The notes: generated from the sequence alone by a model not told the origin. 64,000 bases of DNA from an uncultured delta proteobacterium (GCA_963727445.1 CAVSGI010000021.1:1-64000); one strand, 5' to 3'; numbered from the stretch's first letter, positions 90 to 15,848 are shown. A program made the numbers and translations.

Positions 90-214
90 GCTGATAGCCA
101 TCACAAACGGCCTCCGCTCCCCTCCGGCCGGGCTGGGAGTCGACAGATCATGCCTTCTCGGAAATTCGGGCGTCCGGGGAGCCGGTCCGCTTACACGGTG
201 GCTGGAAACCGGAG
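90..214 (+). repeat. R1 dispersed structured repeat, full copy A (opposite orientation to B, C, F); no IS inserted
   Basis: GCTGATAGCCATCACAAACGGCCTC-[hairpin]-GAGTCGACAGATCATGCCTTCTCGGAAATTCGGGCGTCCGG-[hairpin]-GGCTGGAAACCGGAG; reverse complement aligns with 2353-2469, 6868-6985 and 15724-15848. Confidence 0.85.
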
Positions 215-345
215 CTTTGATGTCCAGTCGGATTTGCGATCTCCGCATAGTCGGCGCCGTTTCTTCGGGCCTGAGTTACGAACCCTGCTCGAGCTTGGCC
301 TTTGACAGTCTAGTGCTCCGTCCTGGTTCGGGAGAACTTGCCTAC

Positions 346-894
346 CTAGCAGGAGACGAATGTAAGACCCGTTAGCCCGCTTGCCTCATAGCGCGAAATG
401 AAGTCGTCGCCCAACTCTCTGTCGTCGCGTTGCACAGTGAGGACGTCTCCGCGCACCGTCTCTGCAACCTTGAATAACGTCGACTCCCCGAATCCGAAAT
501 CACGAAAGGCATACTTCTGAAGGGTGAGTCTCTTTCCGGTGCGAGCGTCAAACCTCCAAGTCGCTCGCGACGGTTCGAGGACAGGATAGATTTCGGTAAC
601 GTTCAGAATGAAGACAGGCTCCTTCTCCTCGCCGAGACTTGCCTCCAGCACTTGACCGGCCATCTCGAAAAGGTCCTCCAGCGCATCCAACGCGGCGGAG
701 TCGAAGCACAAGCACCCAGGCGCGAGATGGAAAAAGTTTCCTCGAACTTGTGTGGCATTGAAGACCAACAGCTCCAACCTCTGCCACTCCCCTTTTGCTC
801 TTCCATCGAACTGCAGTTCAGACCAGCTTGCCTCATCTGCGGGAATAACAGTCTGATACTTCACAACATCCTCACGGATCAGGAAGGTGTTCAT
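346..894 (-). CDS. Putative immunity protein (Imm11/DUF1629-like) for the adjacent AHH nuclease
   Basis: 182 aa directly downstream of an AHH toxin tip; 'FILNVTE', 'LFKV' and terminal 'GLTGLTF' resemble Imm11/DUF1629 proteins. Confidence 0.6.
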   Translation of the reverse strand: MNTFLIREDVVKYQTVIPADEASWSELQFDGRAKGEWQRLELLVFNATQVRGNFFHLAPGCLCFDSAALDALEDLFEMAGQVLEASLGEEKEPVFILNVTEIYPVLEPSRATWRFDARTGKRLTLQKYAFRDFGFGESTLFKVAETVRGDVLTVQRDDRELGDDFISRYEASGLTGLTFVSC

Positions 895-944
895 TCTCCA
901 AGTAGTCCTTGTGCAAGGAAAGGCAGGTCTGCGAAGTTGAAGTT

Positions 945-1220
945 CTAGTACGGGAACTCGCCGGCCGGTATCTCAGTGGCGATCGCCCGCAACTCCTCCC
1001 GGACCGTGCCTGGTGCCGCATCCTGAAGTCGTCTTCCAAGCTCAGTGTAGTACCGGTTGGTGTGAATTACTGAGTGAGTTGTAGTCGGCGGCTGAGCAAC
1101 CCGGCGCGAGCGGGGAAGAAAAATCCCGTTTGCGGCCTCGTTGATGTCGATACCCTCGCGCCGAAGAATCCGACGTGAGAGTGCAGCTCGCGCATCCTGA
1201 GAGACTATGTGATGGCTATC
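945..1220 (-). pseudogene. Orphan C-terminal AHH (HNH/EndoVII) nuclease toxin fragment
   Basis: SHHIV...GIDINEAANGIFLP...HSVIHTNRYY motif set; the ORF upstream of HHIV is the antisense of an RCC1 fragment. Confidence 0.75.
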
Positions 1221-1223
1221 CAC

Positions 1224-1379
1224 GACGATGGCGCCGAGATCGAGGCGGGCGGTGACACCACGTGCGCGCGCCGGTTGGATGGAACCGTGATGTGTTGGGG
1301 CGACAACGAGTTCGGCCAGCTCGGCAACGGGACGACCACGCCTTCGTCTACGCCGGTGTTCGTGATCGGTCCGGAATAG
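1224..1379 (+). pseudogene. 3' fragment of an RCC1-repeat protein
   Basis: EIEAGGDTTCARRLDGTVMCWGDNEFGQLGNGTTTPSSTPVFV then stop; no start. Confidence 0.8.
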
Positions 1380-1422
1380 GCGGCGGCTTGCTCGCCCGTC
1401 ACGTTCGGTGTCTGATCGCGGC

Positions 1423-2034
1423 ATGTTGCGGCGTGACGTGAAGCTGGACTGGAAGGACGCCGTCCTCTTCGCCCTCGGCTTCGCAGTCGCGGTCGGCGTT
1501 CTCGTGTTTCTCTCGACTCAGTACGGGATGACCCTCGAGAACCGTCTCCTGAGGATCGCGATGCTTCTGCTCTGCTTCGGCCCGCTGGCCGCGCGGCGCG
1601 CGTGGTTCGGCCAGCCCACTCGGGCGACGCCGAAGGAGGGGCTGCTCTGGTCGGTGGTCTCGATCCTCGCCCTGCTTCTGATCTTCGGGGGCGTGGGCTC
1701 GCTCGGGTTGTCGCTCGTCCCGCTCAGCCGCCTGCTCGAGTCTCCTCCCGATTTCGAGGCCGACGCTCCCCCAGCGATCGCTCCCACGTCGAACTTCGAT
1801 TACGAGATCCTCGACCCGAACGAGACGCCCGAAGCGCGTGACGCGCGGCTCGCGCGCGAAGCTCGGGAAGCGCAGGTAGTGACGCGAGACGACAAGCCGG
1901 ACGTGTCGGCGCGGTCGAATTGGGAAGCGCAGCGTGCGCGTGCACGCACGAACGCGCTGCTCATGCTCGCTCTGGGGCTCGGCCTCATCGCCGTGGGTAC
2001 GCTGCTGATGACGTTGCGCAATCGGCGAACCTGA
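1423..2034 (+). CDS. Hypothetical membrane protein (~4 TM)
   Basis: Hydrophobic segments in ORF 1408-2034; ATG at 1423. Confidence 0.6.
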   Translation: MLRRDVKLDWKDAVLFALGFAVAVGVLVFLSTQYGMTLENRLLRIAMLLLCFGPLAARRAWFGQPTRATPKEGLLWSVVSILALLLIFGGVGSLGLSLVPLSRLLESPPDFEADAPPAIAPTSNFDYEILDPNETPEARDARLAREAREAQVVTRDDKPDVSARSNWEAQRARARTNALLMLALGLGLIAVGTLLMTLRNRRT

Positions 2035-2078
2035 CGCCGCGCGCCGCTCTGCTGACTTTCGAGACCCAAACGGCGAAA

Positions 2079-2104
2079 CGCCCCGGTGGCAAACCACCGG
2101 GGCG
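2079..2104 (-). terminator. Probable intrinsic terminator retained behind the dnaK fragment
   Basis: Perfect 11-bp stem CGCCCCGGTGG-caaa-CCACCGGGGCG followed by TTT on the minus strand. Confidence 0.7.
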
Positions 2105-2127
2105 CTTCTCCATCGGTCGAGGCCGAC

Positions 2128-2352
2128 TCAGTTCGCGTCTTCGAACTCGGCGTCGATGACGCCGTCACCGCCTTCGTCGTCGCTCGGGGGAGGCGCGCCC
2201 GCACCCGCAGCGCCGGCGACGGCGTCACCGCCCGCGGCCTGGTAGGCCTCGGTGGCGATCTCCTGCATGGTCTTCTCGAGCGCTTCCATGCGCGTCTTGA
2301 TCTGGTCGTCGTTCTGCTCGTCGATGGCCTTGCGCAGATCTTCGATCTTCTT
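2128..2352 (-). pseudogene. dnaK: 3' fragment of Hsp70/DnaK
   Basis: KIEDLRKAIDEQNDDQIKTRMEALEK...EAYQAAGG...DGVIDAEFEDAN is a typical DnaK tail; cut at the R1 copy B edge. Confidence 0.85.
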
Positions 2353-2469
2353 CTCCGCTTTCCAGCTCTCCGGCAACCGTCACGGATCCAGGGAAAGCTG
2401 AGTTTCCGAGAAGGTATGATCTGTCGACTCCCTGCCCGGCCGGAGGGGAGCGGAGGCCGTTCATGGTTA
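2353..2469 (-). repeat. R1 copy B, interrupted at its end by IS copy 1 (remaining TCCGC at 3895-3899)
   Basis: CTCCGCTTTCCAGC...GAGTTTCCGAGAAGGTATGATCTGTCGACTCCC...GGAGGCCGTTCATGGTTA. Confidence 0.8.
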
Positions 2470-2559
2470 CTTCTGTGAAGCGGCCACCCCGGTCAACTGC
2501 GTTGTTTTTGATTTTGCGCTCTACGTCGTCGTGGCTCGTCTCCTTCGCTTCGGCTCGGG

Positions 2560-2760
2560 TTCGTCGTTTCGCTCGTACGTGACGGGTTGTTCAGCCTTCT
2601 GTTCGCGCTCGACTGGGGCGGCTTCGAGGCCGCGGCGCAGGGTGGGATTCGGTGGTGATCGGCGCCATCTATCCGTCGGCGTTCGATAGCAGCCAGTAAA
2701 CATGTCGCGCTCGACCACCATAATCGGTTCCCTTCACATTGAGCGGGTCATCGTCGTTGC
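2560..2760 (-). ncRNA. Predicted bridge/seekRNA of IS copy 1 (ends approximate)
   Basis: Stem GGTGGTCG/CGATCACC encloses CATGTTTA and CGGATA (target halves); ATCCCA and ACAGAAG (element-end halves) follow. Confidence 0.65.
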
Positions 2761-2769
2761 GTCTTCAGG

Positions 2770-3801
2770 TCAGGCCGCAGCAGCCTCCTCACGACTCGCT
2801 GTCGCCTCGAAGCGCGTCCCGTCTCGCCACATCGCGTACAGGATCCCCGCGAGCTTGCGCGCCAGCGCGACCGCCGCGATTCGTTTGCCGCGCCGCGCGG
2901 CGATGCGCAGTGTCCATTCGCGAAGCGGCGCCGTCTCCGGTCGTTTGTGCCGCAAGATCCCCCAGGCCGCTTCGACGAGCAGCGACCGAAGGCGACGACT
3001 ACCCGTCTTCGTGATGTGGCCTCTCATTCGTTTTTCGCCCGAGCTCAGCTCGCGCGGCACCAGGCCCAGATAGGCACGCACTTGCGAGGCGTTGTGGAAG
3101 CGGCCGATCTGGTCGACCACCGCGACGAAGGTCACCGCCGTGACGGGCCCGATGCTCGGCACCGTGCACAGACGCTCGACCACCTCGTCGCCCTTGGCGA
3201 GCTCGGCGAGGCGCTTGTCGGCGTCGCGGATCTGCGCGGTGAGTTGCTCGAGCATCACGAGCAGGGGGGCGACCTCGAGCGACAGGTGCGCTGGCAGCGA
3301 CAGCTCCTCGATGCGCGCGGCAAACGTTGCCGCTCCGCCGCTTCGCGGCGACAGCCCCTCGCGCCGTAGAAGTGCCCGGGTGAGCGAGATGTACTTCGTT
3401 CGCGTGCGCACCAGCGCATCACGCACCGCGACCTGCGCTCGCCGATGCCGAGCCGCGTCCGAGGCGCGGTGCGCCGGGCGGTACGCGCCGAGCCGGCAGG
3501 CGTCGCATAGCGCTCGCGCGTCGCGCCGGTCCGTCTTCACTTTGCGGCTCCGCGTGGCGTACATCGGCGCGAAGTTCGGGTCGGCCACGATCACCTCGTG
3601 ACCCAGCTCCTCGAGCCAGCGAGCCACCCACTCGCTGTCCGTCGACGCCTCCATCACGATCTTCGCCCGTGCGCGGTTGGCGAACAGCTTCGCCAGGGCT
3701 TCGCGCGTCGTCGCCACGCGCCGCTCCCACAGCTCTCCCTCTTTCGTCTGGATGCAGACCTGACTTGTCTTCTTGTGAACATCGATGCCAATGTGCTCCA
3801 C
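2770..3801 (-). CDS. IS110-family DEDD recombinase/transposase
   Basis: GIDVHK, MEAS, KTDRRDA (DEDD RuvC) and C-terminal LVPRELSSG; GGAGG RBS before GTG. Confidence 0.95.
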   Translation of the reverse strand: MEHIGIDVHKKTSQVCIQTKEGELWERRVATTREALAKLFANRARAKIVMEASTDSEWVARWLEELGHEVIVADPNFAPMYATRSRKVKTDRRDARALCDACRLGAYRPAHRASDAARHRRAQVAVRDALVRTRTKYISLTRALLRREGLSPRSGGAATFAARIEELSLPAHLSLEVAPLLVMLEQLTAQIRDADKRLAELAKGDEVVERLCTVPSIGPVTAVTFVAVVDQIGRFHNASQVRAYLGLVPRELSSGEKRMRGHITKTGSRRLRSLLVEAAWGILRHKRPETAPLREWTLRIAARRGKRIAAVALARKLAGILYAMWRDGTRFEATASREEAAAA

Positions 3802-3897
3802 GGCTGGCCTCCACTCTGCGGCTCTTGACCGCGATCAACGTTGTGGGGCTACGGCTACCACGTCAGTGGCGGCCAGCCGCTTACATCCCATCTATCC

Positions 3898-4629
3898 GCC
3901 ACCGTGCGCTGGGGCCTGACACTCTTCCCCGATCTGGGCGGAAGCCAGTGCGGACAGGATGCGATCCCGATCCCGGTGGGCGACGCCAACGAGACCGCGA
4001 TTCAGACGCTCCTCACCAACGCCCTCGATCCGAGCGATCCCTACCACTGCCGGGCGGGGCCCTGCGTCACCAACATAGACACGGCGATGGAGCAGGCGGC
4101 ATCGGATCCCGCATTCGTCGACACCACCCGCGCGAGCTACGCCTTGCTGGTGACCGACGGGAAACAGTCGGGGAGCTGCCGGGGCGGCAGCGACGATCGG
4201 ACCTTCGCGGCGATCGAGGGACTCCGCGGGCGTGGGATCGAGACCTTCGTGGTCGGCTTCGGAAGCGGAGTGGACGGAGAGGCGCTCAGCCGCTTCGCGA
4301 CCCTCGGCGGGACGGATCTGCCGGCGACGCCCAGCTACTACCAGGCCAACGCTCCGGCCGAGCTCCTGACCGCGTTCGACACGATCGTGAGTGGCGTCGT
4401 CAGTTGTGACTATGCGGTGGCAGACATGCCCACCGACCTCTCGATGGTCACCGTCTTCTTCGACGGCAGCCGCACGGTGGACCGCGACGAGAGCCATGCC
4501 GCGGGGTGGGACTTCGACCCGACGACTGGCCGCCTCACTTTCTACGGAGGCCCCTGCGATGACCTCCGAAGCGGCAGCGCGCGCGACGTGGACGTCGTCT
4601 TCGGGTGCGCGGGCCCGAGCCTCGAATGA
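3898..4629 (+). pseudogene. 3' fragment of a VWA-domain protein
   Basis: VRWGLTLFP, LLVTDG, TFVVGFG, C-terminal GPCDDLR..VVFGC; the N-terminal DxSxS is missing, cut at the R1/IS edge. Confidence 0.8.
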
Positions 4630-5858
4630 GCAGCTTTCCCCGGGGAAAGCGATTCGCCCAACTAGGGGTCATACTCTTGGATGCGCGCGGGGAGCTCGGA
4701 ACGGCGTTGCTGCTGACAGCCGTATCTTTCGCGGGCTGCTACGAGTCTCACGAAGCCGCAGCGCCCTGCACCGACGGCGCCCTCCCCTTCCCGGTGGGTC
4801 GTGCGTGCGATGTCGAGCTGCACGAGCTCGCCGTCTTCCCTCTCGGTGGAGGGTCCGGCGCGAGAATCGCCCCGGGTGAAGACAGCCTCCTTCTAATCTG
4901 GCGGGACGGATCCATTCTCGACTCTCCCCCCGGACCCACGCGCTTGGCGACCTCGGTCATGCCGGTGCACGGACGTCCCAGTGAGCCCCAATACTTTCTG
5001 GAGGATGTTGGCTACGTGCGCGAGCCGGACGCCGTGTGGACCGGAAGCGGATGGCTCGGAACGTGGACTGAGAGGGGGCCGCCGACCCTCGCACGGATCG
5101 ACCCGATGGGAACACCTCACGTCACGGGTCGGGTGGAGGGTGGGCCACCCGGCTCCGAGCTTCGTTCCCAGCTGCTCGTCGTGGATGAGCACTACGCGCT
5201 CCTCGTCTGGATCGTGGTCACCTCCGAGGGCACGGCGGTGTTCGCGAGCGAAGTCGACATCGACTCCGGCGAACCTCGCGGCGAGCCGATACGACTCCCC
5301 TTGGACTACGGATGGCCGCACCTCGGTCGTCAGTCGACCGCCGGGCCACCATGGATTCTCTTCGTGATGGACGGCGCGATCCTCGGACAGACACTGAGCC
5401 CGAGTGGCTCACCACTCGCCCCGCCCCGAGTTTTGGTCGCGAGAGCTGCAACCGAAACGCTTGGCCCGTTTGCTCACGCAGAGCGAGAGGACGGCGGAAT
5501 GCTCGCCTACACCCGTGAAGGTGACGACGGCGCGCAACGAGTGGCCCTTCGGCTCCTCGACACCAGCGGCAATCCCATCGGCGACGCCCCACCCCTGCAC
5601 TCGGATTGCGAGTCGAGCGCCGCCCCTTCCCTCGTCGCCTATCGAGATGGGTACGCAATGGCGTTTCGGCACACGGGGTCGGACGGAACCACCCAGCGTC
5701 TGGTCACGCTCGATGCCCGCGGTCGGTCGCTCACGCAGCAGCAGCTACCCCAAGCCGTGCAACTCACCACCGATGCTTCGGGCGAGCTCCACTTCAGCGC
5801 GGGGATGGCGACCGATACGGAGACCACGCTCTTCGCGGGCCACATCTCGTGTCCGTGA
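4626..5858 (+). CDS. Hypothetical lipoprotein (start uncertain)
   Basis: Lipobox-like LLLTAVSFAGC; ~400-aa ORF. Confidence 0.6.
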   Translation: MSSFPRGKRFAQLGVILLDARGELGTALLLTAVSFAGCYESHEAAAPCTDGALPFPVGRACDVELHELAVFPLGGGSGARIAPGEDSLLLIWRDGSILDSPPGPTRLATSVMPVHGRPSEPQYFLEDVGYVREPDAVWTGSGWLGTWTERGPPTLARIDPMGTPHVTGRVEGGPPGSELRSQLLVVDEHYALLVWIVVTSEGTAVFASEVDIDSGEPRGEPIRLPLDYGWPHLGRQSTAGPPWILFVMDGAILGQTLSPSGSPLAPPRVLVARAATETLGPFAHAEREDGGMLAYTREGDDGAQRVALRLLDTSGNPIGDAPPLHSDCESSAAPSLVAYRDGYAMAFRHTGSDGTTQRLVTLDARGRSLTQQQLPQAVQLTTDASGELHFSAGMATDTETTLFAGHISCP

Positions 5859-5905
5859 TGCCGACGTCGGTTGCCAAAGACGACTCAGGCTGAGCGCGCC
5901 GCCCG

Positions 5906-6415
5906 CTAAAGCGTGGGCAGGCTGCGCGCCGGGTTCTTCGGGTCGTAGACGACCCAGATGCGCTTCTCTTCCCACAGCCAGATCGTCTTCTGCTGGCGTT
6001 CGAAACGCTCGCCGTCGACCGCGTATGCGTACTTCACGAAGTGGCTGACGCTACGCCCGTTGGCCCCTGTCCCATCGGCGGGGATCATGTACGTCTTGAT
6101 CACTTCGCCCTCGCAGCATCCCCCGTTGCGCCACAGCTTCATCACGTGGTGGCGGAGCAGGAGACCCAATCCCGGCATGCACAGCGCGGGCCCTATCACG
6201 ACCAGGGTGTGCCAAAGAGGCTCCTCGGGATCGTAGGCGATGATGGCCATCACCAGCAGCGACAGCACGATGAAGCCACCCCAGAGGATCAGCCCGGTCC
6301 CGCGGGGATTCACGCCGGAGGCGAACCCGTCGCGAGGCGCCGGCCCTGGTGGCACACGCCGCGGAGGGGCGTCTTCGTCCGCGACTTCATCGGCTTCTTC
6401 GTCGTGATTGCTCAT
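5906..6415 (-). CDS. Small membrane protein, DUF3592-like
   Basis: Two TM helices, then GEVI...YAYAVDGERF...VVYDPKNPARS. Confidence 0.6.
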   Translation of the reverse strand: MSNHDEEADEVADEDAPPRRVPPGPAPRDGFASGVNPRGTGLILWGGFIVLSLLVMAIIAYDPEEPLWHTLVVIGPALCMPGLGLLLRHHVMKLWRNGGCCEGEVIKTYMIPADGTGANGRSVSHFVKYAYAVDGERFERQQKTIWLWEEKRIWVVYDPKNPARSLPTL

Positions 6416-6867
6416 CAGCGCATGGCCAGCTGCTCGAAGAAGCTAGCCAGCTGGGCGCGCTGCTCCGGGGGCATGTACTCGAAGTTGCGGCCGCGATCGA
6501 TGATCTCCCAGAAGTCCTTGGTGGTGACGCTCTCGAGGGACGATCGGATCTGTTCGAGGCGCGCGCGCGGTTCGTCCGCCATGTCCTCCGCGATGCGCTT
6601 CGCGTGATCGGTCTCGCCCTTCCACAGGTAATAGGCGGCGAGCTTCACCTGTGTCTTGCGCACGCCGAGGAGCGCAGACTCCTGAGACTTCGACCGCAGC
6701 GGGCGGTCGAGCTCGAGGAACTGGTCGAGCATCTCCTGGTGCGCGTCGGAGTCGAGCTCGTGCGCGATCTGACAGAGCGCCGAGATGTCGTAGGCGACGG
6801 TCTCGGTCACGAACGAGAGCTTCATGTCGAAGCTGACGTGGCCGTAGTAGCTCATGTGTCGCACGCC
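6415..6867 (-). pseudogene. 3' fragment of a hypothetical protein
   Basis: Protein-like helical sequence (YYGHVSF...FWEIIDRGRNFEY) begins at the R1 copy C edge; the ORF's first ~28 aa are repeat-derived. Confidence 0.65.
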
Positions 6868-6985
6868 CTCCGGTTTCCAGCCACCGTGTAAGCGGACCGG
6901 CTCCCCGGACGCCCGAAAATTCCGAGAAGGTACGATCTGTCGACTCGTCACACCGCCTGCGGCGGCGCGAGGCCGTTCGTGGTTA
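6868..6985 (-). repeat. R1 copy C, interrupted by IS copy 2
   Basis: CTCCGGTTTCCAGCCACCGTGTAAGCGGACCGGCTCCCCGGACGCCCGAA identical to the copy A arm; ends GAGGCCGTTCGTGGTTA. Confidence 0.85.
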
Positions 6986-7075
6986 CTTCTGTGAAGCGGC
7001 CACCCCGGTCAACTGCGTTGTTTTTGATTTTGCGCTCTACGTCGTCGTGGCTCGTCTCCTTCGCTTCGGCTCGGG

Positions 7076-7276
7076 TTCGTCGTTTCGCTCGTACGTGACG
7101 GGTTGTTCAGCCTTCTGTTCGCGCTCGACTGGGGCGGCTTCGAGGCCGCGGCGCAGGGTGGGATTCGGTGGTGATCGGCGCCATCTATCCGTCGGCGTTC
7201 GATAGCAGCCAGTAAACATGTCGCGCTCGACCACCATAATCGGTTCCCTTCACATTGAGCGGGTCATCGTCGTTGC
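7076..7276 (-). ncRNA. Predicted bridge/seekRNA of IS copy 2
   Basis: Same sequence as 2560-2760. Confidence 0.65.
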
Positions 7277-7285
7277 GTCTTCAGG

Positions 7286-8317
7286 TCAGGCCGCAGCAGC
7301 CTCCTCACGACTCGCTGTCGCCTCGAAGCGCGTCCCGTCTCGCCACATCGCGTACAGGATCCCCGCGAGCTTGCGCGCCAGCGCGACCGCCGCGATTCGT
7401 TTGCCGCGCCGCGCGGCGATGCGCAGTGTCCATTCGCGAAGCGGCGCCGTCTCCGGTCGTTTGTGCCGCAAGATCCCCCAGGCCGCTTCGACGAGCAGCG
7501 ACCGAAGGCGACGACTACCCGTCTTCGTGATGTGGCCTCTCATTCGTTTTTCGCCCGAGCTCAGCTCGCGCGGCACCAGGCCCAGATAGGCACGCACTTG
7601 CGAGGCGTTGTGGAAGCGGCCGATCTGGTCGACCACCGCGACGAAGGTCACCGCCGTGACGGGCCCGATGCTCGGCACCGTGCACAGACGCTCGACCACC
7701 TCGTCGCCCTTGGCGAGCTCGGCGAGGCGCTTGTCGGCGTCGCGGATCTGCGCGGTGAGTTGCTCGAGCATCACGAGCAGGGGGGCGACCTCGAGCGACA
7801 GGTGCGCTGGCAGCGACAGCTCCTCGATGCGCGCGGCAAACGTTGCCGCTCCGCCGCTTCGCGGCGACAGCCCCTCGCGCCGTAGAAGTGCCCGGGTGAG
7901 CGAGATGTACTTCGTTCGCGTGCGCACCAGCGCATCACGCACCGCGACCTGCGCTCGCCGATGCCGAGCCGCGTCCGAGGCGCGGTGCGCCGGGCGGTAC
8001 GCGCCGAGCCGGCAGGCGTCGCATAGCGCTCGCGCGTCGCGCCGGTCCGTCTTCACTTTGCGGCTCCGCGTGGCGTACATCGGCGCGAAGTTCGGGTCGG
8101 CCACGATCACCTCGTGACCCAGCTCCTCGAGCCAGCGAGCCACCCACTCGCTGTCCGTCGACGCCTCCATCACGATCTTCGCCCGTGCGCGGTTGGCGAA
8201 CAGCTTCGCCAGGGCTTCGCGCGTCGTCGCCACGCGCCGCTCCCACAGCTCTCCCTCTTTCGTCTGGATGCAGACCTGACTTGTCTTCTTGTGAACATCG
8301 ATGCCAATGTGCTCCAC
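7286..8317 (-). CDS. IS110-family DEDD recombinase/transposase
   Basis: Protein identical to 2770-3801. Confidence 0.95.
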   Translation of the reverse strand: MEHIGIDVHKKTSQVCIQTKEGELWERRVATTREALAKLFANRARAKIVMEASTDSEWVARWLEELGHEVIVADPNFAPMYATRSRKVKTDRRDARALCDACRLGAYRPAHRASDAARHRRAQVAVRDALVRTRTKYISLTRALLRREGLSPRSGGAATFAARIEELSLPAHLSLEVAPLLVMLEQLTAQIRDADKRLAELAKGDEVVERLCTVPSIGPVTAVTFVAVVDQIGRFHNASQVRAYLGLVPRELSSGEKRMRGHITKTGSRRLRSLLVEAAWGILRHKRPETAPLREWTLRIAARRGKRIAAVALARKLAGILYAMWRDGTRFEATASREEAAAA

Positions 8318-8489
8318 GGCTGGCCTCCACTCTGCGGCTCTTGACCGCGATCAACGTTGTGGGGCTACGGCTACCACGTCAGTGGCGGCCAGCCGCTTAC
8401 ATCCCATCTATCCGCCGCTACGACTCCATCGACCGGCTCTGCCACGTCTGTTCTCATCGAACGCGTCGGGCTCTCATCGAACGCGACGC

Positions 8490-10268
8490 TCATGGACCCA
8501 CGAGCGCGCTCCTGAGAAGCACGAAACGCTGTCCGGAAGAGATCATGTCGTTGGTGCCGTCGCCGACGATGCTCCAGTACATGAGGTTGGTGCTGTCTCC
8601 GAGCGAAGTGTCTTCGAGCGTGTCCCCGGCCCCAAAAGGTGAGCAGGCCACCATCGATGGGTCCTCCCCCGGCCCACACGGGCGGAGCTGCTCGGTACTG
8701 TGGAAGAGACCGAGGTAGTGCCCAATCTGGTGAGCGAGGATCTGCCCAACCACCTGGCTGCCGGTCACGCCGGCGCCGACCACGGTCGGGTCGAAGGACG
8801 AGGCGATTCCGCTGTGCTCCGTACCGTGGATGCCCACCGGCCCGGGGACGCCACCAGCGATGCCGAGCGCGCGGGCCCCGCTGGTGGTGCCGGCGTCGAG
8901 CGCGCGGACGAGGAAGATGTTCAGCGCGCGGCCGGTGCGACCCGCGCTCAGACGGAAGAGGCCCGCGAGCTCACTGTCTGGGCCCTCCGTCGAGTCGATG
9001 ATCTGGTAGCGCGTCGCATCCGCGCCGGTGATGTCGAAGTACGAGACCGTGCCGAGGCTGATGCCCGCGCTGGCGAGGATCGACGAGAGACGGGCGAGCG
9101 CGCCTTGAACGCGGCTGTCCGTGCCGGCTGCTGCTGCCGACACGCCAACGCCGACGAGGAAGATGTTGAGGTCGAGGGTGCCGGAAGTCACCGAGCGACC
9201 GGGGGCACGCTTGATGAGCGCACTGAGCTCTACGGTCGTCATCCCCGGGTCGGGGTCGAACCGGGGGATCGGGGTGACCGTCCACTGGTAAGTGCCCCCA
9301 GGGAACGCGATCCGATCGGGCGTGCTGTTGGGCACCAACATGGTAATGGTGCTGCCACGATCGACGGGCAGCCACCGCTCGGCCTGGTCGCGCAAAGCGA
9401 GGATCTCGGACGCCTCGTACAAGGTCGTGTCGCGTGGATCGATCACGTTGCTGAAGGTCAGCTCGAGCGGGTCTCCGCCCGTGCGATGGGCCATGAGCGT
9501 GATCGAGACGGTGTCGGGGGGGACTGCGCAGTCGACGCTGCCATCCACCCCTGCGGCGAGCGTCATCACGCCGAGGTCGACTCGTTCGATCCTCGTCGCG
9601 TCTCCGAGCTCGGAGTAACCGCACCCCATGAAGGTCGCGCCACTCGCGCCAGCCCGTGTGAGCGAGGTGCAGATCTGACCGACCCTGCAGTCCCCATCAG
9701 CGCCACAGACGTCGGTGCATTGCCCCTCTTGGCAGGTGCGAGAAGCACACTGGTCGTCGCCGTCGCACGCGTGCGCGCTCGGGAAGCTCCCTCCGGGCAC
9801 CGGCAGGCAGGTGGGCGAGACGGTGTCGGCAATCGTGTCGCCGTTCGAGTCCGTTGGCCACGCGCTGCACGCAGTGTCGACCTCGGTGAGCGCGATGCAA
9901 TCGCCCGTGCGAGTGCAGACGAGCGAACAGAACCCTCCGAGCTCGTCTGGGAGGCATACTCCCCCCGCACAATCGACGTCGTCGGTGCAGGGCGCTCCGA
10001 GGGGGAGGCTGTGACTCGCATCCGAGGAGTCCGAGGAGAGGCCCGCGTCCGAGGAGGCGCCCGTGTCCGAGAGGTCCGCGTCCGAGGAGGCGCCCGAGTC
10101 CGTCGGCGCCGTCACGCAGCGGCCTTCGCTACAGATCTGGCCGGCGCTGCAGTCGGTTGACGTTGTGCATTCCGGGCTGTCGGAGGTGCCACAGGCCCCG
10201 ACCAACAAGACGCAGACCACGACGTAGGACGAAGAAGGAAAGAAGTGCACGCGGCCGACAGCATACAC
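8490..10268 (-). CDS. Cys-rich lipoprotein with metzincin-like C-terminal domain (HQxxH variant)
   Basis: LLVGAC lipobox, CxxxxDC repeats, AHQIGHYLGLFH and NLMY Met-turn; start uncertain. Confidence 0.75.
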   Translation of the reverse strand: MYAVGRVHFFPSSSYVVVCVLLVGACGTSDSPECTTSTDCSAGQICSEGRCVTAPTDSGASSDADLSDTGASSDAGLSSDSSDASHSLPLGAPCTDDVDCAGGVCLPDELGGFCSLVCTRTGDCIALTEVDTACSAWPTDSNGDTIADTVSPTCLPVPGGSFPSAHACDGDDQCASRTCQEGQCTDVCGADGDCRVGQICTSLTRAGASGATFMGCGYSELGDATRIERVDLGVMTLAAGVDGSVDCAVPPDTVSITLMAHRTGGDPLELTFSNVIDPRDTTLYEASEILALRDQAERWLPVDRGSTITMLVPNSTPDRIAFPGGTYQWTVTPIPRFDPDPGMTTVELSALIKRAPGRSVTSGTLDLNIFLVGVGVSAAAAGTDSRVQGALARLSSILASAGISLGTVSYFDITGADATRYQIIDSTEGPDSELAGLFRLSAGRTGRALNIFLVRALDAGTTSGARALGIAGGVPGPVGIHGTEHSGIASSFDPTVVGAGVTGSQVVGQILAHQIGHYLGLFHSTEQLRPCGPGEDPSMVACSPFGAGDTLEDTSLGDSTNLMYWSIVGDGTNDMISSGQRFVLLRSALVGP

Positions 10269-10357: not shown

Positions 10358-10426
10358 CTCCGGTTTCCAGCCTCCACCGAAGCCAACCCCTTCACCGGAC
10401 GCCCGAGTTTCGCAGTAGGTATGATC
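10358..10426 (-). repeat. R1 half copy D
   Basis: CTCCGGTTTCCAGCCTCCACCGAAGCCAACCCCTTCACCGGACGCCCGAGTTTCGCAGTAGGTATGATC. Confidence 0.85.
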
Positions 10427-10694
10427 AATGCGCGGACTCCCAGAAGACCCAGCGCGAGATGTCCGCGCGCTCGCGCGGCTCCCGCGACCAAAGCCGATCT
10501 TCCCCGTGCGCCTCGCTCGCGTACAAGAGGATCGCGTTCGACTCCCAGAGGACGAAGTCGCCATCGACCAGCGTGGGCACTTTCCCCCAGGGGTTCTTGG
10601 CGAGGAACTCGGGGGCGCGCCCTTCGCCCCGATAGACGTTCACCTCCACGATCTCCGGGGTGAGCCCGAGCTCGTGGCAGGTGGCGACGACCTT
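10427..10694 (-). pseudogene. Internal fragment of a glutathione S-transferase
   Basis: KVVATCHELGL...PEFLAKNPWGKVPTLVDGDFVLWESNAILLY; truncated at both ends. Confidence 0.85.
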
Positions 10695-11033: not shown

Positions 11034-11393
<360 letters not shown>

Positions 11394-11665
11394 GCCGCCC
11401 CTCTCCGACCCGGCGGGGACGTCGTTCACTTTTGACGCAACCCAGGCGAGCGCGATCGAACGCGGGTCGTTGCCAGATCGCGCGACCCGCGCAGGTCAAA
11501 AGTGCACTGCGTCCCCTTCCAACGTCCTTGGGGGAGACGCACGGATTCGGATTCGGAATGCGATGCGGGGCGGCAATCGCCGCAAGCACTTCGACATCGC
11601 GCGGGCTCGACCCAGGAAGTGAGGGTCGCGCTCGAGACGGCGGCGGCGCTCGGGCGGGGGCGATC

Positions 11666-11749
11666 GGGGACGGTTCGAACTTCCGTAACGGACCGTCCCC
11701 AGACGCCCTGTCCAGACGCCTCTCCGTTGCGGAAGTTCGGACCGTCCCC
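11666..11749. repeat. R2 REP/REPIN-like inverted repeat
   Basis: GGGGACGGTTCGAACTTCCGTAACGGA ... TCCGTTGCGGAAGTTCGGACCGTCCCC. Confidence 0.8.
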
Positions 11750-11818
11750 AGACGCCTCGGGCAAGTGCCACGTCCACTGGCGTCGACTCGATGCGTTTCG
11801 ACGATGTACGATGCGGCG

Positions 11819-12487
11819 ATGCCTGGTCGCAAGCGTGAGGCGAGCTCGCTCGCCGTCGACCGCATCGAGTCCAAGCTCGAGAAGCTGCGCGCCAAGGACA
11901 AGCGCCTCTCGGTGTTCGGCGCATCTGCGCATCGATACGTGCTCCACCCACCGCTCGCCGAGAAGACGGTCGCCGCGTTCGAGCGCAAGTGGCACATCAC
12001 GTTACCGGACGACTACCGGCGCTTCCTGGTCGAGGTCGGCAACGGTGGCGCGGGTCCTGCGTACGGCGTCTTCAAGCTCGGGGAGGAGGACGCGGGCTTC
12101 GGTCACCGCAAGTGGAAGCACCTCATCGACGATCCATCGAAGCCCTTCCGCCACGCGCGAGCGTGGAATCTGCCTGCCGCGGTGCGGAAGAAGCAGCCGG
12201 ACCCAAAGGGGATGACGCCCGAGGAGGAAGACGAGGCATGGAGCGCTTGGGGCGCGCTCGTACACGAGCAGTACAGAGGGCTCATGGACGGCGCGATCCC
12301 GATTTGTCATCTCGGGTGTGCCCTTCGCCAGTGGCTCGTGGTCACCGGTCCACGCGCCGGAGAGGTCTGGAACGACGACCGGGCCGACGAGCGGGGCATC
12401 GCGCCGCTCACGAAGAACCGCCATCGTGTCACCTTCGCGGAGTGGTACGAGGGATGGCTCGACGCGAGCCTCCGTCGCCGCCTCTGA
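11819..12487 (+). CDS. SMI1/KNR4 (SUKH) family immunity-type protein
   Basis: AFERKWHITLPDDYRRFLVEVGNGGAGP, ICHLGC, LVVTGPRAGEVW, TFAEWYEGWLD. Confidence 0.85.
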   Translation: MPGRKREASSLAVDRIESKLEKLRAKDKRLSVFGASAHRYVLHPPLAEKTVAAFERKWHITLPDDYRRFLVEVGNGGAGPAYGVFKLGEEDAGFGHRKWKHLIDDPSKPFRHARAWNLPAAVRKKQPDPKGMTPEEEDEAWSAWGALVHEQYRGLMDGAIPICHLGCALRQWLVVTGPRAGEVWNDDRADERGIAPLTKNRHRVTFAEWYEGWLDASLRRRL

Positions 12488-12621
12488 AGGAGCGGGCCAC
12501 GGGGCGAGCCCGCCGACGCGCGAGCGTGACCCGTCAGGCGCCGTGCTTGCGCAGCGCCGCCTTGATGGTGGGTGGTAGCGACTCGAGCGTGGCGTCATCG
12601 CGGAAGCGTTCGAGGGCAGGT

Positions 12622-12683
12622 CTCCGGTTTCCAGGCCTCCACGGAAGCCAACCCCTTCACCGGACGCCCGAGTTTCCGAGAAG
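12622..12683 (-). repeat. R1 half copy E
   Basis: CTCCGGTTTCCAGGCCTCCACGGAAGCCAACCCCTTCACCGGACGCCCGAGTTTCCGAGAAG. Confidence 0.85.
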
Positions 12684-12949
12684 TAGGAGTGTTCCGTCGC
12701 GCGCGCCCGATGGCGGAGCTGTGCAGGGAGCGGTGGCTGCGCGCTCGACGGAACACAGTTTGAGCCAAGCCCAGTCGACGGGGGGGCTATGGGGAAGTCA
12801 TGCGACGGAGAGACCGCTGGGCGTCCAAGCGGCGTGGAAAGTACGGCGGCCAATGACGCGGAAGAGCGCGCTGCGGGGGTATGAAGGTTGGCGGCGAATG
12901 CACGCACGGGTGGTTGAGGACGGACCGGTACGTCTCCGGGTCGTGCCGT

Positions 12950-13073
12950 CCGAGCGCCTGAAGTCCAGCTCGGCGGCCAGATCGTCGGGCAAGATGGTCT
13001 TCCATTCCTCGATCGCGGTCGGCATGAACGCCAACCAATCCTTGAACCGAGAGTACTTTTCGTCAGGTGTCAC
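12950..13073 (-). pseudogene. Possible 5' fragment of a gene following the immunity-like gene
   Basis: GTG-TPDEKYSRFKDWLAFMPTAIEEWKTILPDDLAAELDF, after which the sequence stops looking protein-like. Confidence 0.4.
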
Positions 13074-13084
13074 GGTGCCCTGTG

Positions 13085-13492
13085 TCAGGTGTCGTTGGTC
13101 TCGGGGAAGGCTTGGCCCAGCAGGATCTGCCGCGCATTCTCCGTGTTCGCGGGGGTGATGCGCCAGCGCTTCTCGTCCTGGAACTCGAAGTAGATTCGAA
13201 GCGCCTTGTCCGCGCGGCGCACCGCAGCGAGGCACTTGATCCACGGCTTTCCGTCGTCGCCCGCGGTGATTTCGCGCAGCCGGAAGAAGGCCTGACCCGT
13301 CGGGCGCTGCTCCAGACCCATGTCGAGGGTTATCCGGGTGTTTCCGTTGTAGCGGAAGACCTCGCCCCCGTAGCTGCTCCCGTCCCTCGTCTCGAACACC
13401 CAGCCCGCATAGTCCCACTCTTCGCCGTCGGAGTTGGCGCGCCGCAGGATCGCTCCTCCGATTTGGTGCACGAGATCGGTCTTGTTTGCCAT
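13085..13492 (-). CDS. Small hypothetical protein, immunity-protein-like
   Basis: 135 aa; PWxxC...FEFQDEKRWRITPAN pattern recalls toxin-associated immunity proteins; family not verified. Confidence 0.55.
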   Translation of the reverse strand: MANKTDLVHQIGGAILRRANSDGEEWDYAGWVFETRDGSSYGGEVFRYNGNTRITLDMGLEQRPTGQAFFRLREITAGDDGKPWIKCLAAVRRADKALRIYFEFQDEKRWRITPANTENARQILLGQAFPETNDT

Positions 13493-13795
13493 CTGATCAG
13501 CTCTTTCTTCGATGCGTCAGGCCGGAGGTCTCATCGCCGGGTGGCGAAACGCCGCCCACGGTGGCGAGACGCCGCGGGGTCGGAAGCTCCTCGGATCCGC
13601 CTCGGACGGCAGGGGTGCTGGTTGCGAAAGCGGTGATGGTGGCGAACGGGGGGCCTGGAGGTCAACGCGCAGTCCACGGATGGTGCGGGACCGGCGTCTC
13701 CACGCGCCGGGTGCCGTCATCCACGCGCCGAGCACCGTCGCCGTGCACGCGCCGGCGCCTTCCGCAGCGCCGGGTCGTTCGGCTAGACTTTCCGC

Positions 13796-14206
13796 ATGGG
13801 GCGATGGGGCCGATTCGCGCTCGCGGCGATGATGACGTTCGCCGTTTGCTCGGGTGCGGAGGCTCAGGACTCAGGCGGAACCGAGCCCGCCTGGGGACTC
13901 GTGATTACTGGCGGCTCGTTCTTCATCACGGCCTACGCTGGCGCCGTGGGGGTGGCCTTCGTCGACTCCGTGGATCCTGTCTCCGCCGTTCCGCTCGTGG
14001 GGCCCTGGATTGCTCCCGAAGAGCTCCCGAGCGAGGACGGACTCCTGAAGGGCGCGCTGGGCTTGTGGGGTGCGATGCAAGCCGCGGCGGCCTTCTTGAT
14101 CATCGCTGGTCTCCTCACGCGGCGTACACGGCGGCACCGTGAAATCTCGCTGAGTCCGTATGCCTCGGATGACGGAGCCGGGGTCGTCGTTCGTGGGTGC
14201 CTTTAG
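13796..14206 (+). CDS. Hypothetical secreted/membrane protein
   Basis: Signal peptide, VPLVGPWIA, two hydrophobic segments. Confidence 0.6.
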   Translation: MGRWGRFALAAMMTFAVCSGAEAQDSGGTEPAWGLVITGGSFFITAYAGAVGVAFVDSVDPVSAVPLVGPWIAPEELPSEDGLLKGALGLWGAMQAAAAFLIIAGLLTRRTRRHREISLSPYASDDGAGVVVRGCL

Positions 14207-14349
14207 TCCTGCGGTTGCGAGGCGCACGTGCACGACATCTAGAACGAGCTCGACGGCGGACCGAACCGTCGATGTCACGTCAGCCCGCGAAGCTCGGTCC
14301 GTCCGCCGCGTTCGGCGGGTCACGCGTCCGGGTCGAGCCAGCGCAATCT

Positions 14350-14396
14350 TGGAGCCACCTGCCAGATTTGAACTGGCGACCTACGGTTTACGAAAC
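14350..14396 (-). pseudogene. 3' half of tRNA-Thr(CGT), probable att scar
   Basis: Minus strand GTTTCGTAAACCGTAGGTCGCCAGTTCAAATCTGGCAGGTGGCTCCA: anticodon loop, T-arm, acceptor 3' strand and CCA; no D-arm. Confidence 0.85.
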
Positions 14397-14492
14397 GTGT
14401 CGCGGGGCGAATGATTTCGGGACGTTGAGTGGCGTGTTGCCCGATGTTGCCCACCACGAGCGCTGCGATGCGGCGCACGGTACTCTGAACGT

Positions 14493-14921
14493 ATGGCCGG
14501 CCCGTTCGCATCGGAGCGCGCTCGCGACCAACTCGCTCGCATCCTCGCGCACGTGAGCTTTCCGGGGCTCGGGTTGATTCTCGATCGGGAAGGGTGCGTC
14601 GTTGCGGCTCATGGCAGCGCGCCAGGGACCACCGTGCAGCAGGTGGCGGACGTCTTCGGAGCGAGGCGCAATGCGCCGATCCGGGCGGAGGGCGCCGTAG
14701 TCGGGGAGCGCTATCGCGTTCACCGTCGCGAGCTGCCAGCGGGATACTTCCTACTCATAGCCGTGCCCTGCGACGTCGCGATTCGCGACGATCGACTCGA
14801 CCGGGCGGTCGAGCTGCTCGAGCGCATGCTCGTTGTCGGTGCGCTGATGGATCCGGGTGCGGGAAACTCGGGGAGCGGGGCGCCTGCGTTGGTTGGCTTG
14901 GACATCGAGCGCGACCAGTAA
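14493..14921 (+). CDS. Hypothetical protein
   Basis: 142-aa ATG ORF with protein-like composition. Confidence 0.45.
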   Translation: MAGPFASERARDQLARILAHVSFPGLGLILDREGCVVAAHGSAPGTTVQQVADVFGARRNAPIRAEGAVVGERYRVHRRELPAGYFLLIAVPCDVAIRDDRLDRAVELLERMLVVGALMDPGAGNSGSGAPALVGLDIERDQ

Positions 14922-14990
14922 TGCCCTTCCCACTCGAACTCCAGTACGTACACGCGACAGAAGAGAAGCTTGGACAGGACCGGATAAGGT

Positions 14991-15084
14991 GGGGACGGTC
15001 CGAACTTCCGTGACGCCGGTACCAAGACGATTCGTCGCCGACGATTTCCCCGCGGCCGCGTGACGGAAGTTCGATCCGTCCCCC
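14991..15084. repeat. R2 REP/REPIN-like inverted repeat
   Basis: GGGGACGGTCCGAACTTCCGTGACG ... CGTGACGGAAGTTCGATCCGTCCCC. Confidence 0.8.
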
Positions 15085-15088
15085 GGCA

Positions 15089-15250
15089 CTCCGCGGCCTG
15101 CGCGACGTGGTGCTCGAGGGCAACGGGTCCTCGCTGCGGACGATGACGATGAACGAGGCGAATGGCGACACGACGGTGACGACGTTTCGCGATGTGAACG
15201 CGCGGCGGCGGTTTAGTGCGGCGGAGATGGCGCGGGTGTTTCGGTTGTGA
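15089..15250 (+). pseudogene. 3' fragment of a LolA-like protein
   Basis: LRDVVLEGNGSSLRTMTMNEANGDTTVTTFRDVNARRRFS...F-stop; abuts R2. Confidence 0.6.
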
Positions 15251-15307
15251 CCGTACTGTTTCGGCGGCCGCGCTCGGGCTGCGAGCAGCGTCGCGTTACG
15301 CCCGCAG

Positions 15308-15703
15308 TCAGCCGGGGACCTTCGGAACCTCGATCGCGAGGTCGGGCTCGTTGTGGAAGAAGGTGATCTGGACGGTGCCGGCCACGGACTCCCGTCGCTG
15401 CTCGTCGGTGAGCCCGACTAGGGCGGCGCGAGCCTCCTCGAGCACCTGATCGGCGTGCGTGTGGAGGGAGAGGCCTTCGACCGTCTTCAGGGCGAGGACG
15501 AGCTCGGGGACGCGCGCGCGGATCGTCTCCACGTTCAGGACGAGCGACTTGTTCGAGAATTGGTGGACGTCGATGATGAAGGCGTGCGCGGCGTGGATCG
15601 CTGCCTGGACGCGTGCCGTGAGCGCGTGCCGCTCCTCGCGCGTGTCGGCGTTCAGCCGGAAGTGCGGCTGTGGGATCGGCCAATATGGTCGCTCGGCGCT
15701 CAA
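15308..15703 (-). CDS. Hypothetical protein
   Basis: 131 aa; DVHQFSN and ITFFHNEPDLAIEVPKVPG look like a conserved family. Confidence 0.6.
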   Translation of the reverse strand: MSAERPYWPIPQPHFRLNADTREERHALTARVQAAIHAAHAFIIDVHQFSNKSLVLNVETIRARVPELVLALKTVEGLSLHTHADQVLEEARAALVGLTDEQRRESVAGTVQITFFHNEPDLAIEVPKVPG

Positions 15704-15723
15704 CGGACATCACGTTAGCACCA

Positions 15724-15848
15724 CTCCGGTTTCCAGCCTCCACGGAAGCCAACGCCTTCACCGGACGCCCGAGTTTCGCGGTAGGCATGATCTGTCGACT
15801 GGCGTCCCGGCTGAGACGAAGCGGAGACCGTTCATGATAGCAATTCGC
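15724..15848 (-). repeat. R1 full copy F (no IS)
   Basis: CTCCGGTTTCCAGCC...CCGGACGCCCGAGTTTCGCGGTAGGCATGATCTGTCGACT-[hairpin]-GAGACCGTTCATGATAGCAATTCGC. Confidence 0.85.

Follow-up and report, generated by a model that had tools for sequence, protein, structure and literature searches.

A ~126-bp repeat in an uncultured delta proteobacterium as a probable origin unit of an ISCR/IS91-type transposon with a putative dif-type core

Introduction

The closest known system to the repeat analysed here is the set of miniature right-end derivatives of IS801, which come in three lengths (229, 360 and 679 nt). According to the report that describes them (Bardaji et al. 2011; PMC3189936), they are non-autonomous oriIS fragments with a preferred internal end, which rely on an HUH transposase acting in trans, use a tetranucleotide target, make simple insertions and are rare in genomes. 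They have no inverted repeats and anchor deletions and rearrangements, IS801 origin-anchored deletions having been shown experimentally (PMC6354349). ISCR1, ISCR2 and ISCR28 form a second point of reference. The DNA next to their oriIS varies, a fixed terIS upstream is lacking and, for ISCR28, a two-oriIS 'sandwich' bounds captured genes (PMC12772301, PMC13393415). ISCR transposition is still described as presumed in 2026 (PMC13393415, PMC13181058). Gene capture by ISCR elements, like the point at which they terminate, has long lacked an explanation.

Other systems build rows of DNA between repeats. An integron is a same-strand row of single-gene cassettes with attC boxes, headed by a recombinase gene, while in IS26 translocatable-unit arrays direct repeats bound random, gene-truncating passengers. 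The pdif modules of Acinetobacter plasmids have their boundaries at dif-type sites, in alternating orientation.

R1 is a repeat found at junctions between gene fragments in 64,000 nucleotides of DNA (the window; GCA_963727445.1, CAVSGI010000021.1:1-64000) from an uncultured delta proteobacterium. The best explanation as a whole, to which we give a probability of roughly two in three, is that R1 is an HUH-derived origin unit whose arrays would be built with the assistance of XerCD.

Results

A profile search of the 9.47-Mb genome (E<=0.05) gave 52 R1 matches, against none in the reversed genome. Forty of 50 matches have a neighbour within 5 kb (simulated mean 2.6, maximum 16, in 2000 simulations). 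Four copies elsewhere in the genome run on into an HUH transposase gene that points at R1; R1 starts ~90 bp behind its stop codon, which places oriIS downstream of the gene, and there are no terminal inverted repeats. The gene is open on contigs C10 and C24, frameshifted on C9 and truncated on C5. Its product (P0001) contains Y2_Tnp (E 4e-24) and Zn_Tnp_IS91 (E 9e-18) domains, i.e. the zinc-binding domain and catalytic tyrosine of IS91/ISCR-type HUH transposases, and its best NCBIfam model is ISCR clade Ia (NF052416), although 332.5 bits against a curated cut-off of 925 mean that it is not a member of this clade. The 5' end of R1 is the reverse complement of the CTA-N4-C tail found behind related transposases. 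Where the original prediction recognised no known family, R1 is the oriIS end of a rolling-circle transposon of the ISCR/IS91 type, which this genome itself contains.

A fixed terIS upstream of the transposase gene was not found, the three long copies diverging at different points; the fixed second end sits within the oriIS region. There is no tetranucleotide target beside oriIS either, the base preceding the origin G being T (10), G (10), A (9) or C (2) in the 31 cases, and in another genome, G097, the target next to oriIS obeys a pyrimidine/purine rule only (26/26).

The window holds R1 in various states of preservation. The predicted full copies at 90..214 (plus strand) and at 2353..2469, 6868..6985 and 15724..15848 (minus strand) were recovered by the profile search, and the three conserved boxes are real. 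The unit at 90..214 is complete, with its oriIS end at 90 and its fixed inner end at 213/214, and shares its 3' flank with a copy on C11 (99.5% identity over 1065 bp) but not its 5' flank. Of a further copy, 16 bp of the oriIS end survive at 1208..1223 (minus), where unrelated sequence interrupts it. The R1 body at 2353..2469, the inner arm of which is divergent, is joined at its inner end to a 75-codon dnaK 3' fragment (2125..2352, minus), which shares about 81% identity with the dnaK that this genome carries on C11. This copy and the one at 6868 do not end at 2469 and 6985, as had been thought, since their first 8 bases lie at 3892..3899 (adjoining a truncated VWA-domain gene) and 8408..8415, both minus, beyond an inserted IS110-family element. 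A 2968-bp passenger without assigned strand (3900..6867) separates the two units; its edges are the VWA fragment and a truncated gene (6415..6867), which corresponds to the last 150 codons of a gene with a 94.6%-identical homolog that is whole on C10. Further along, an R1 inner half (10358..10427, minus) with an intact inner end, broken just beyond the dif spacer, lies between an IS3 remnant and a truncated GST gene. The proposed coincidence of R1 edges with cut genes holds for dnaK (2352), the 6415 gene, IS3 (10357) and VWA (3899), whereas the GST joint at 10427 is a break inside R1. The remaining copies, all on the minus strand, are one without an oriIS end (12622..12719), the full-length copy at 15724..15848, whose oriIS box has decayed, a 25-bp remnant (33470..33494) and a remnant keeping its inner end (54101..54137). 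The partial copies predicted at 10358, 12622, 33471 and 54101 were accordingly found, those at 20663 and 37730 gave no profile match, and the one at 22267 is a borderline match (E 0.03 when the window alone was searched).

The definition of R1 by two hairpin arms did not hold. Against shuffles, 24 distinct copies had mean folding z scores of +0.1 and -0.1 for the two strands (+0.2 and -0.3 at arm level), RNAalifold, with a covariation term of +0.28, gave no consensus stem for arm 1, and the suggested Rfam search returned no match at gathering thresholds. An outer stem of 4-6 bp at the inner end closes in most copies, with one two-sided change, and some copies fold locally (e.g. arm 1 of the 6868 copy). 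The original prediction had named two results as counting against it, and both were obtained: R1 matches a known IS end, and covariation is not significant. Its description of a non-autonomous mobile DNA element that joins or truncates DNA, without terminal inverted repeats or attC boxes, stands. Identity with REP/REPIN or a structured ncRNA was rejected for want of a conserved hairpin, covariation or an Rfam match, and a MITE because the ends of R1 are unlike each other, its flanks are unrelated, and terminal inverted repeats and a target duplication are absent.

Solo R1 copies stop at one fixed inner point, so R1 is probably a non-autonomous ~126-bp unit consisting of the oriIS origin and a fixed second cut site, with a dif-type site between them. 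Among 40 inner-end motif matches, 31 end in GGAG or TGAG and give way to unrelated DNA, four lead into the transposase gene and five are variants or chance. The base following the joint G is C in 20 of the 31 (p 6e-4). This G is present in homologous uncut DNA in 4/4 cases aligned from the first base, in 7/9 with looser starts, and in 3/4 in G097, where a shift by one base accommodates the fourth; the autonomous copies have another base at this position. Sharp inner ends also occur in G097 (where the unit is 100 bp), G063, G009/G159/G278, G161 and G212.

None of the testable units has contiguous flanks (0/7 in this genome and 0/9 in G097, hence 0/16), which holds even for near-identical young units in G097. 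One donor site is split between two arrays, the left half lying at an inner end in the first and the right half at an origin end in the second, this being a multi-copy sequence for which two independent hits are possible. Since the two ends of G097 units obey different base rules, with the origin's last base absent from the donor in 6/7, no single-nick model accounts for them. The IS110-R1 joint near 2470 is spanned by contigs of two other public runs, in data consisting of four contig sets with short pieces, where most joints have no cover.

We searched the genome with a matrix built from 20 dif sites of other genomes. The single chromosomal dif (C3:34506) lies at the switch of GC skew and KOPS-like motifs, and the next six best sites are R1 centres. 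The core at 138..165 (minus), which comprises an XerC-like arm, a 6-bp spacer and an XerD-like arm, has the second-best score genome-wide; other cores in the window are at 2402-2429, 6918-6945 and 15773-15800. XerD and XerC-like genes are present. Of 20 aligned copies, 11 have the core 48 bp from the origin end, and another six have it at 45-47 or 38 bp. Most R1 scores are 12-21, compared to 43.5 for the true dif, and overlap the reversed-genome control (best 19.8), and about a third of the copies need a 7-bp spacer or have no dif-type fit. The R1 centre looks like a degenerate XerC/XerD (dif-type) site with an 11-6-11 layout, its arms resembling those of the host dif. Strong sites of this type (scores 19-36) lie near oriIS in 10/27 related elements of the order and are absent from 17/27, while near-perfect sites reach up to 55 copies per genome in relatives. 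The spacer is uniform within a genome and unlike that of the chromosomal dif. R1 arms are mosaic across copies, with proportions of incompatible site pairs of 0.80-0.82 across the centre and 0.38-0.60 within or beside arms, and a sharp breakpoint at the spacer is absent. In 24 distant solo-origin loci, no dif-type site is claimed, the E-values being inflated by low GC and all scores being <9.

Neither the dif-type core nor the IS110 element inside R1 featured in the original prediction. This element (2470..3891, minus; transposase 2770-3801) occupies the oriIS box of the 2353 copy, and a second one (6986..8407, minus) that of the 6868 copy. The transposase scores 277 bits with NF033542 (cut-off 140), which places it in the IS110 family, and two guide-like segments are found at about 2669-2702, in the non-coding region downstream of its gene. 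Such predicted guides occur in 8/8 full copies and co-vary with two origin-box variants. The inserted element is of the IS1111 type, with its IS110-family transposase and a downstream non-coding region matching both target strands. IS1111-group members aimed at attC, REP or Tn21 inverted repeats are similar: a long non-coding region follows their IS110-family transposase gene, each target strand has one of the two short guide matches, and guides are naturally reprogrammed from one variant to another (PMC11187229). The difference is the target, here the oriIS box of an ISCR-type element, which was not found as an IS1111-group target in the literature searched. That R1 could be a bridge RNA was rejected, because it is the target of the IS110 element and not one of its components.

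Behind a transposase gene, units line up on one strand. Such rows are present in this genome and clearest in G097, where 30/31 non-autonomous matches are on the transposase strand and all 18 extra dif-pattern matches genome-wide lie to the origin side of a transposase gene, of which there are three. In G097, the median distance is larger for broken units (34 vs 18 kb, p 0.016 on data that are not independent). On C9, C24 and C5 of this genome, 7/7 extra matches are on the origin side and the same strand; clusters on C11, C12 and C20 are of mixed strands, with no such transposase on the contig stretch. Contig-end overlaps gave no link between the window and a transposase-bearing contig. Genomes from at least three other families share the architecture. 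Array cargo includes restriction systems, a kdp operon and kinases, as well as fragments of housekeeping genes, and passengers in this genome are random 0.7-4 kb pieces that cut genes. The units also bear a load of IS110, IS4-like and integrase-IS91 elements. A DNA search found no R1 array in the only same-genus genome, so the exact R1 sequence is lineage-specific, and the 14-base inner-end pattern had one match each in 3/40 related genomes, the same as the control level. Pattern matches in metagenome (34) and viral (3) collections were all discarded, since none is a genuine R1; the best profile E was 0.011 and no transposase was present.

Discussion

How such arrays might be built can be sketched. 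The HUH transposase from intact copies would act in trans and nick at oriIS and at the inner site, after which each nicked end would join new DNA, the inner end choosing DNA that starts with G, mostly GC. Different partners at the two joints could arise from a replicative reaction, comparable to a cointegrate or an adjacent deletion, in which the unit is duplicated with foreign DNA between the copies, or alternatively from later recombination between units. Host XerCD might then resolve fused products at the dif-type site, and circles of unit plus passenger could re-enter at an existing unit via this site, so that rows of [passenger + unit] would accumulate behind the transposase gene. The site of this genome is degenerate and may be only partly active, and other IS elements would use the unit as a landing site. 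A more ambitious version, an integron-like capture platform widespread in the order, in which an HUH transposase would join foreign DNA to either end of a ~100-bp origin unit beside its own gene, with excision and re-insertion by XerCD, transposase-proximal addition and a reprogrammed RNA-guided IS1111 plugging the origin, is tentative and, on present evidence, rather doubtful.

That R1 copies are ordinary IS801-like minis, born of premature termination and simple insertion and surviving in IS-rich safe regions, their flanks later scrambled by homologous recombination and internal IS, with a dif-type site that aids the parent or is a relic, is unlikely but deserves serious attention. Right-end minis of 229, 360 and 679 nt do transpose at high frequency (PMC3189936), R1 units are laden with IS110, IS4-like and integrase-IS91 elements, the arms are mosaic without a sharp breakpoint, and simple insertion followed by flank exchange fits the split donor site. 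It accords poorly, however, with the lack of contiguous flanks in all 16 testable units, young G097 units included, with one-sided same-strand rows behind transposase genes, and with a spacer that is uniform per genome and differs from the chromosomal dif.

The other readings are far less probable. A pdif-module-like system, in which XerCD makes the joints at the central site and the transposase is incidental, could draw on the XerC/XerD genes and on sites in relatives that are near-perfect and number up to 55 per genome, but is largely refuted by joints that lie at the unit ends, ~48 bp either side of the site, and not at the spacer, by sites that are mostly direct rather than alternating, and by the fact that the unit belongs to a transposon end. 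A single-strand-folded recombination site or mobile RNA with two hairpins is very improbable, because local folding in some copies and a short outer stem in most have to be set against z scores of ~0 on both strands, a covariation of +0.28, no Rfam match and identity with the transposon end. Contigs mis-joined across the repeat are just as improbable: clusters do lie near contig ends and the window begins at one, but a 126-bp repeat with copies 70-95% identical is shorter than reads, at least three other families share the architecture, and two runs' contigs cross the joint near 2470.

Among known systems, R1 is closest to the IS801 minis, with which it shares a non-autonomous oriIS fragment, a preferred internal end, a transposase in trans, no inverted repeats and the anchoring of rearrangements. 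It differs in that each genome has a single length of unit in dozens of copies, any base rule covers no more than one or two positions, the flanks are never contiguous, the units stand in polar tandem rows and a dif-type site lies inside. With ISCR elements it has in common a related transposase, the same oriIS tail, DNA that varies next to oriIS, the lack of a fixed terIS upstream and extra oriIS copies on either side of captured genes. Its inner end is fixed, whereas that of solo origins close to distant relatives (Pseudomonadales and others) is ragged; no report of a dif-type site in ISCR was found in the literature searched. Like pdif modules and dif, cer and psi, R1 offers multiple XerC/XerD 11-6-11 sites flanking accessory DNA and, as in pdif, a spacer unlike the chromosomal dif, yet its site is inside a transposon end, with joints elsewhere, mostly direct and in chromosomal clusters. 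The recombinase-headed same-strand row of repeat-bounded DNA, apparently older at its far end, recalls an integron, except that an HUH transposase is at the head, the units lack attC boxes (RYYYAAC..GTTRRRY) and an integron integrase, and the passengers are not single-gene cassettes. The scores of tyrosine recombinases in the vicinity are far under the integron integrase cut-off, and an attC/cassette array was rejected as there is no conserved fold and passengers cut genes. Direct repeats around random gene-truncating passengers resemble IS26 arrays, although R1 has no transposase of its own. A fixed inner end, a dif-type site, polar arrays and an IS1111 aimed at oriIS were not found in the literature searched.

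Natural genomes provide dozens of precise minimal-unit joints, which locate the two cut sites and suggest host XerCD as a partner, and the small scale of the system, a 100-126-bp unit plus one transposase, makes the mechanism directly testable. The IS1111 element offers a natural case of predicted guide-target co-variation, for a target class not found in the literature searched, and the arrays, given their cargo, are a route for gene acquisition. If true, the capture platform would provide the resolution step so far missing from the replicative transposition of IS91/ISCR elements.

R1 as the origin end of an ISCR-type element

R1, the repeat of ~125-126 bp in the window, is the oriIS end of an ISCR-type element, since its 5' end is the reverse complement of a tail that recurs on the transposase side of such elements. 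Behind related transposases, in other phyla (69 loci) and in the same order (matches in 140 of 301 Polyangiales genomes, a count that includes G122), this tail consists of a TT-containing box, then CTA-N4-C, then unrelated DNA. In the IS91 family, oriIS is the end downstream of the transposase gene and the start point of transposition, according to passages in PMC13181058 and PMC3189936. Four R1 copies of the present genome (GCA_963727445.1, or G000), on contigs C5, C9, C10 and C24, pass on their 3' side into the tail of an opposite-strand gene pointing at the repeat. The element's HUH transposase, P0001, has Y2_Tnp and Zn_Tnp_IS91 domains, and its best model, ISCR clade Ia, scores 332 bits, below the cut-off of 925. 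Upstream of the transposase copies in G000, a fixed terIS was looked for and not found. Frameshifts in one transposase copy (C9:925438-925463) and in the dnaK reading frame of C11 may be sequencing errors in the assembly.

A profile seeded with the window copies and iterated once gave 52 matches at E<=0.05 in the 9.47-Mb genome (69% GC) vs 0 in the reversed genome. The copies are clustered: of the 50 matches with E<0.01, 40 lie no more than 5 kb from another, a number that averaged 2.6 over 2000 random placements and never exceeded 16. All four full copies of the original prediction (90-214, 2353-2469, 6868-6985 and 15724-15848) were recovered, together with four of its seven partial ones (10358, 12622, 33471 and 54101); that at 22267 is marginal, and those at 20663 and 37730 are unsupported. 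Its proposal that R1 edges coincide with truncated genes was borne out, with a dnaK 3' end of 75 codons beginning at 2352, at an R1 edge, a gene ending at 6415 that is a tail only (complete counterpart on C10, 94.6% identity), and IS3, GST and VWA pieces adjoining further copies. The two-hairpin description failed: dinucleotide shuffles fold as well as whole copies do (mean z +0.1 and -0.1 on the two strands, 24 distinct copies) and as well as the arms alone, and a consensus fold of 20 copies leaves arm 1 empty (covariation term +0.28), the sole remaining fold, at the inner end, being a short outer stem. Rfam returned no match to R1.

The fixed inner end

The inner-end motif has 40 matches, of which 31 read GGAG or TGAG and then pass into unrelated DNA, four read GGAC and run on into the transposase gene, and five are variants or chance. 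The base after the inner end is C in 20 of the 31 (p 6e-4). The joint G is present in uncut homologous DNA in 4/4 cases aligned from the first base, and in 7/9 with looser starts; a head-to-tail unit dimer without an extra base, in the related genome G097, favours a joint base derived from partner DNA rather than from the unit. The same design, in different sequence, recurs in other families of the order, as solo units of 100 bp (G097), ~135 bp (G063) and ~88 bp (G009, G159 and G278), with sharp inner ends in G161 and G212 too. In several of these genomes the autonomous copy carries an origin-like TTCATG or TTTG box, and the cut falls just within it. Inner ends are ragged in the solo origins near distant relatives.

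A dif-type core

With the dif consensus as a lead, a single strong site was located in G000 at C3:34506 (C3:34479-34506), where GC skew and GGGNAGGG polarity switch; it is the single-copy chromosomal dif and marks the replication terminus. Its contig holds no R1 copy. The genome encodes XerD and a XerC-like gene just below the cut-off. Across the order, the dif pattern occurs in 226/301 genomes, mostly once (control matches almost none), and the extra copies of the high-copy genomes (G161 with 55, G097 with 19, G063 with 17, G278 with 10) lie inside oriIS units; their spacer is near-uniform per genome and unlike that of chromosomal dif.

The middle conserved box of the original prediction is real, and has turned out to be a XerD-like arm plus spacer. 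A matrix built on 20 chromosomal dif sites, all in other genomes, places six R1 centres directly below the true dif of G000 (19.7-21.1 vs 43.5); R1 accounts for 15 of the 41 sites scoring >=11, and a further seven R1 sites fit with a 7-bp spacer. Because the reversed genome reaches 19.8, the putative dif-type site of R1 is degenerate, the case for it being one of position and homology. Related elements of the order carry a strong site in 10/27 cases, and 17/27 have none. Perfect palindromes of two XerC-like arms with a 6-bp spacer lie at C22:5142, C10:1575247 and C10:1573038, with tyrosine recombinase genes nearby.

R1 as an insertion target

An IS110 element has its left end after the origin box G[CT][GT]GATAG in 9/9 cases with a readable flank (a contig start truncates the tenth), and the rest of R1 follows beyond it in 8/8 full copies. 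Contigs from two other public runs span the IS-R1 joint. Downstream of its transposase, the non-coding region has two short segments, one per target strand with one mismatch each, and both differ between two subtypes exactly in step with the target variants. This is the seekRNA arrangement that PMC11187229 describes for the IS1111 group.

Other IS types also lie inside R1, several at the dif spacer. An element with a tyrosine recombinase gene and a canonical IS91 transposase gene (L004:7948-10250 on C11; C22; L277:8567-10574 in G097) occupies the dif-type core of origin units in G000 and G097 alike, interrupting the units at the spacer or XerC arm, and may be a mobile element targeting dif-type sites. 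An IS4-like element (L004:19267 to L005:766; C11 19267-20766) has R1 origin stubs in inverted orientation on both sides.

Polar rows and their passengers

G097 (3 contigs) has three transposase genes, each at the head of a row of units, and 30/31 non-autonomous matches around them are on the transposase strand. As the stretches compared reach only 2-5 kb upstream of each gene, row polarity rests on a whole-genome pattern scan, in which the 18 extra dif-pattern matches all fall within 40 kb on the origin side. Intact units sit closer in than broken ones (median 18 vs 34 kb, p 0.016, a test that overstates, some segments being duplicated between rows). Polarity is the same on C9, C24 and C5 of G000 (7/7 extra matches). 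The window row consists of seven minus-strand matches, mostly more decayed with distance from the contig start; a transposase beyond the contig end would fit, and no contig-end overlap shows such a link. The clusters on C11, C12 and C20 have mixed strands.

Neighbouring units in G000 enclose passengers of 0.7-4.0 kb; the ORFs scanned (91 of 122 picked) include restriction-modification genes, a kdp operon, kinases, many IS and metG pieces. A fragment of an AHH-type nuclease domain and a gene of the SMI1/KNR4 immunity type are also among the passengers (945-1424, 11432-12487). The 3' part of an ABC-F gene, together with the short fragment after it (11034-11557), matches two places on C9 at 98% identity, one of them immediately upstream of the ISCR-type transposase gene. 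A second repeat, with a ~22-bp core beginning GGGGACGG (11666-11749, 14991-15083, 16019-16226; also C11, C12 and C20), is REP-like by appearance, its 25 copies being confined to R1 clusters, often as inverted pairs or tandem runs. A 164-bp direct duplication (15862-16232, 99%) centred on it adjoins the R1 copy at 15724. Low-complexity coding tandem repeats occur at 41086-41173 and 10028-10102.

Unit flanks are never two halves of one site (0/7 in G000, 0/9 in G097). The window copy at 90 and one C11 copy have 1065 bp of passenger in common, and different outer flanks. One G097 donor site, within multi-copy sequence, is split between two rows 800 kb apart: its left half adjoins an inner end in the first row, its right half an origin end in the second, and the halves have one base in common.

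How the units may have spread

Observation gives the identity of R1, its two sharp ends, its resemblance to dif, the rows, the unrelated flanks and the targeting by IS. We infer that (i) a transposase supplied in trans would make both joints, (ii) replicative events, or later exchange between units, would leave each end with a different partner and (iii) XerCD would resolve the products and let unit-bounded circles re-enter at existing units. Against this mechanism, the R1 arms show mosaicism with no breakpoint at the spacer, the two unit ends obey different base rules and R1's own dif-type site is weak. The leading alternative, in which plain IS801-like minis were scrambled afterwards, is less likely.

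Relation to known systems

Attribution of R1 to an attC array, a pdif module, a REP or a MITE was ruled out. R1 was compared with integrons, IS26 and cer/psi by their general properties, and with ISCR28 capture as described in PMC12772301. The papers searched, with few subscription titles among them, yielded no description of a dif-type site within oriIS, of origin units of fixed length in polar rows or of an IS1111 aimed at oriIS. The R1 element differs from IS91 proper in its target, which is not the tetranucleotide, from IS91/ISCR in that no fixed upstream terIS was found and from ISCR clade Ia in its transposase, which falls outside that clade. R1 works like the right-end minis of IS801 and like ISCR origin-bounded capture, and by transposase and origin its element belongs to the IS91/ISCR superfamily.
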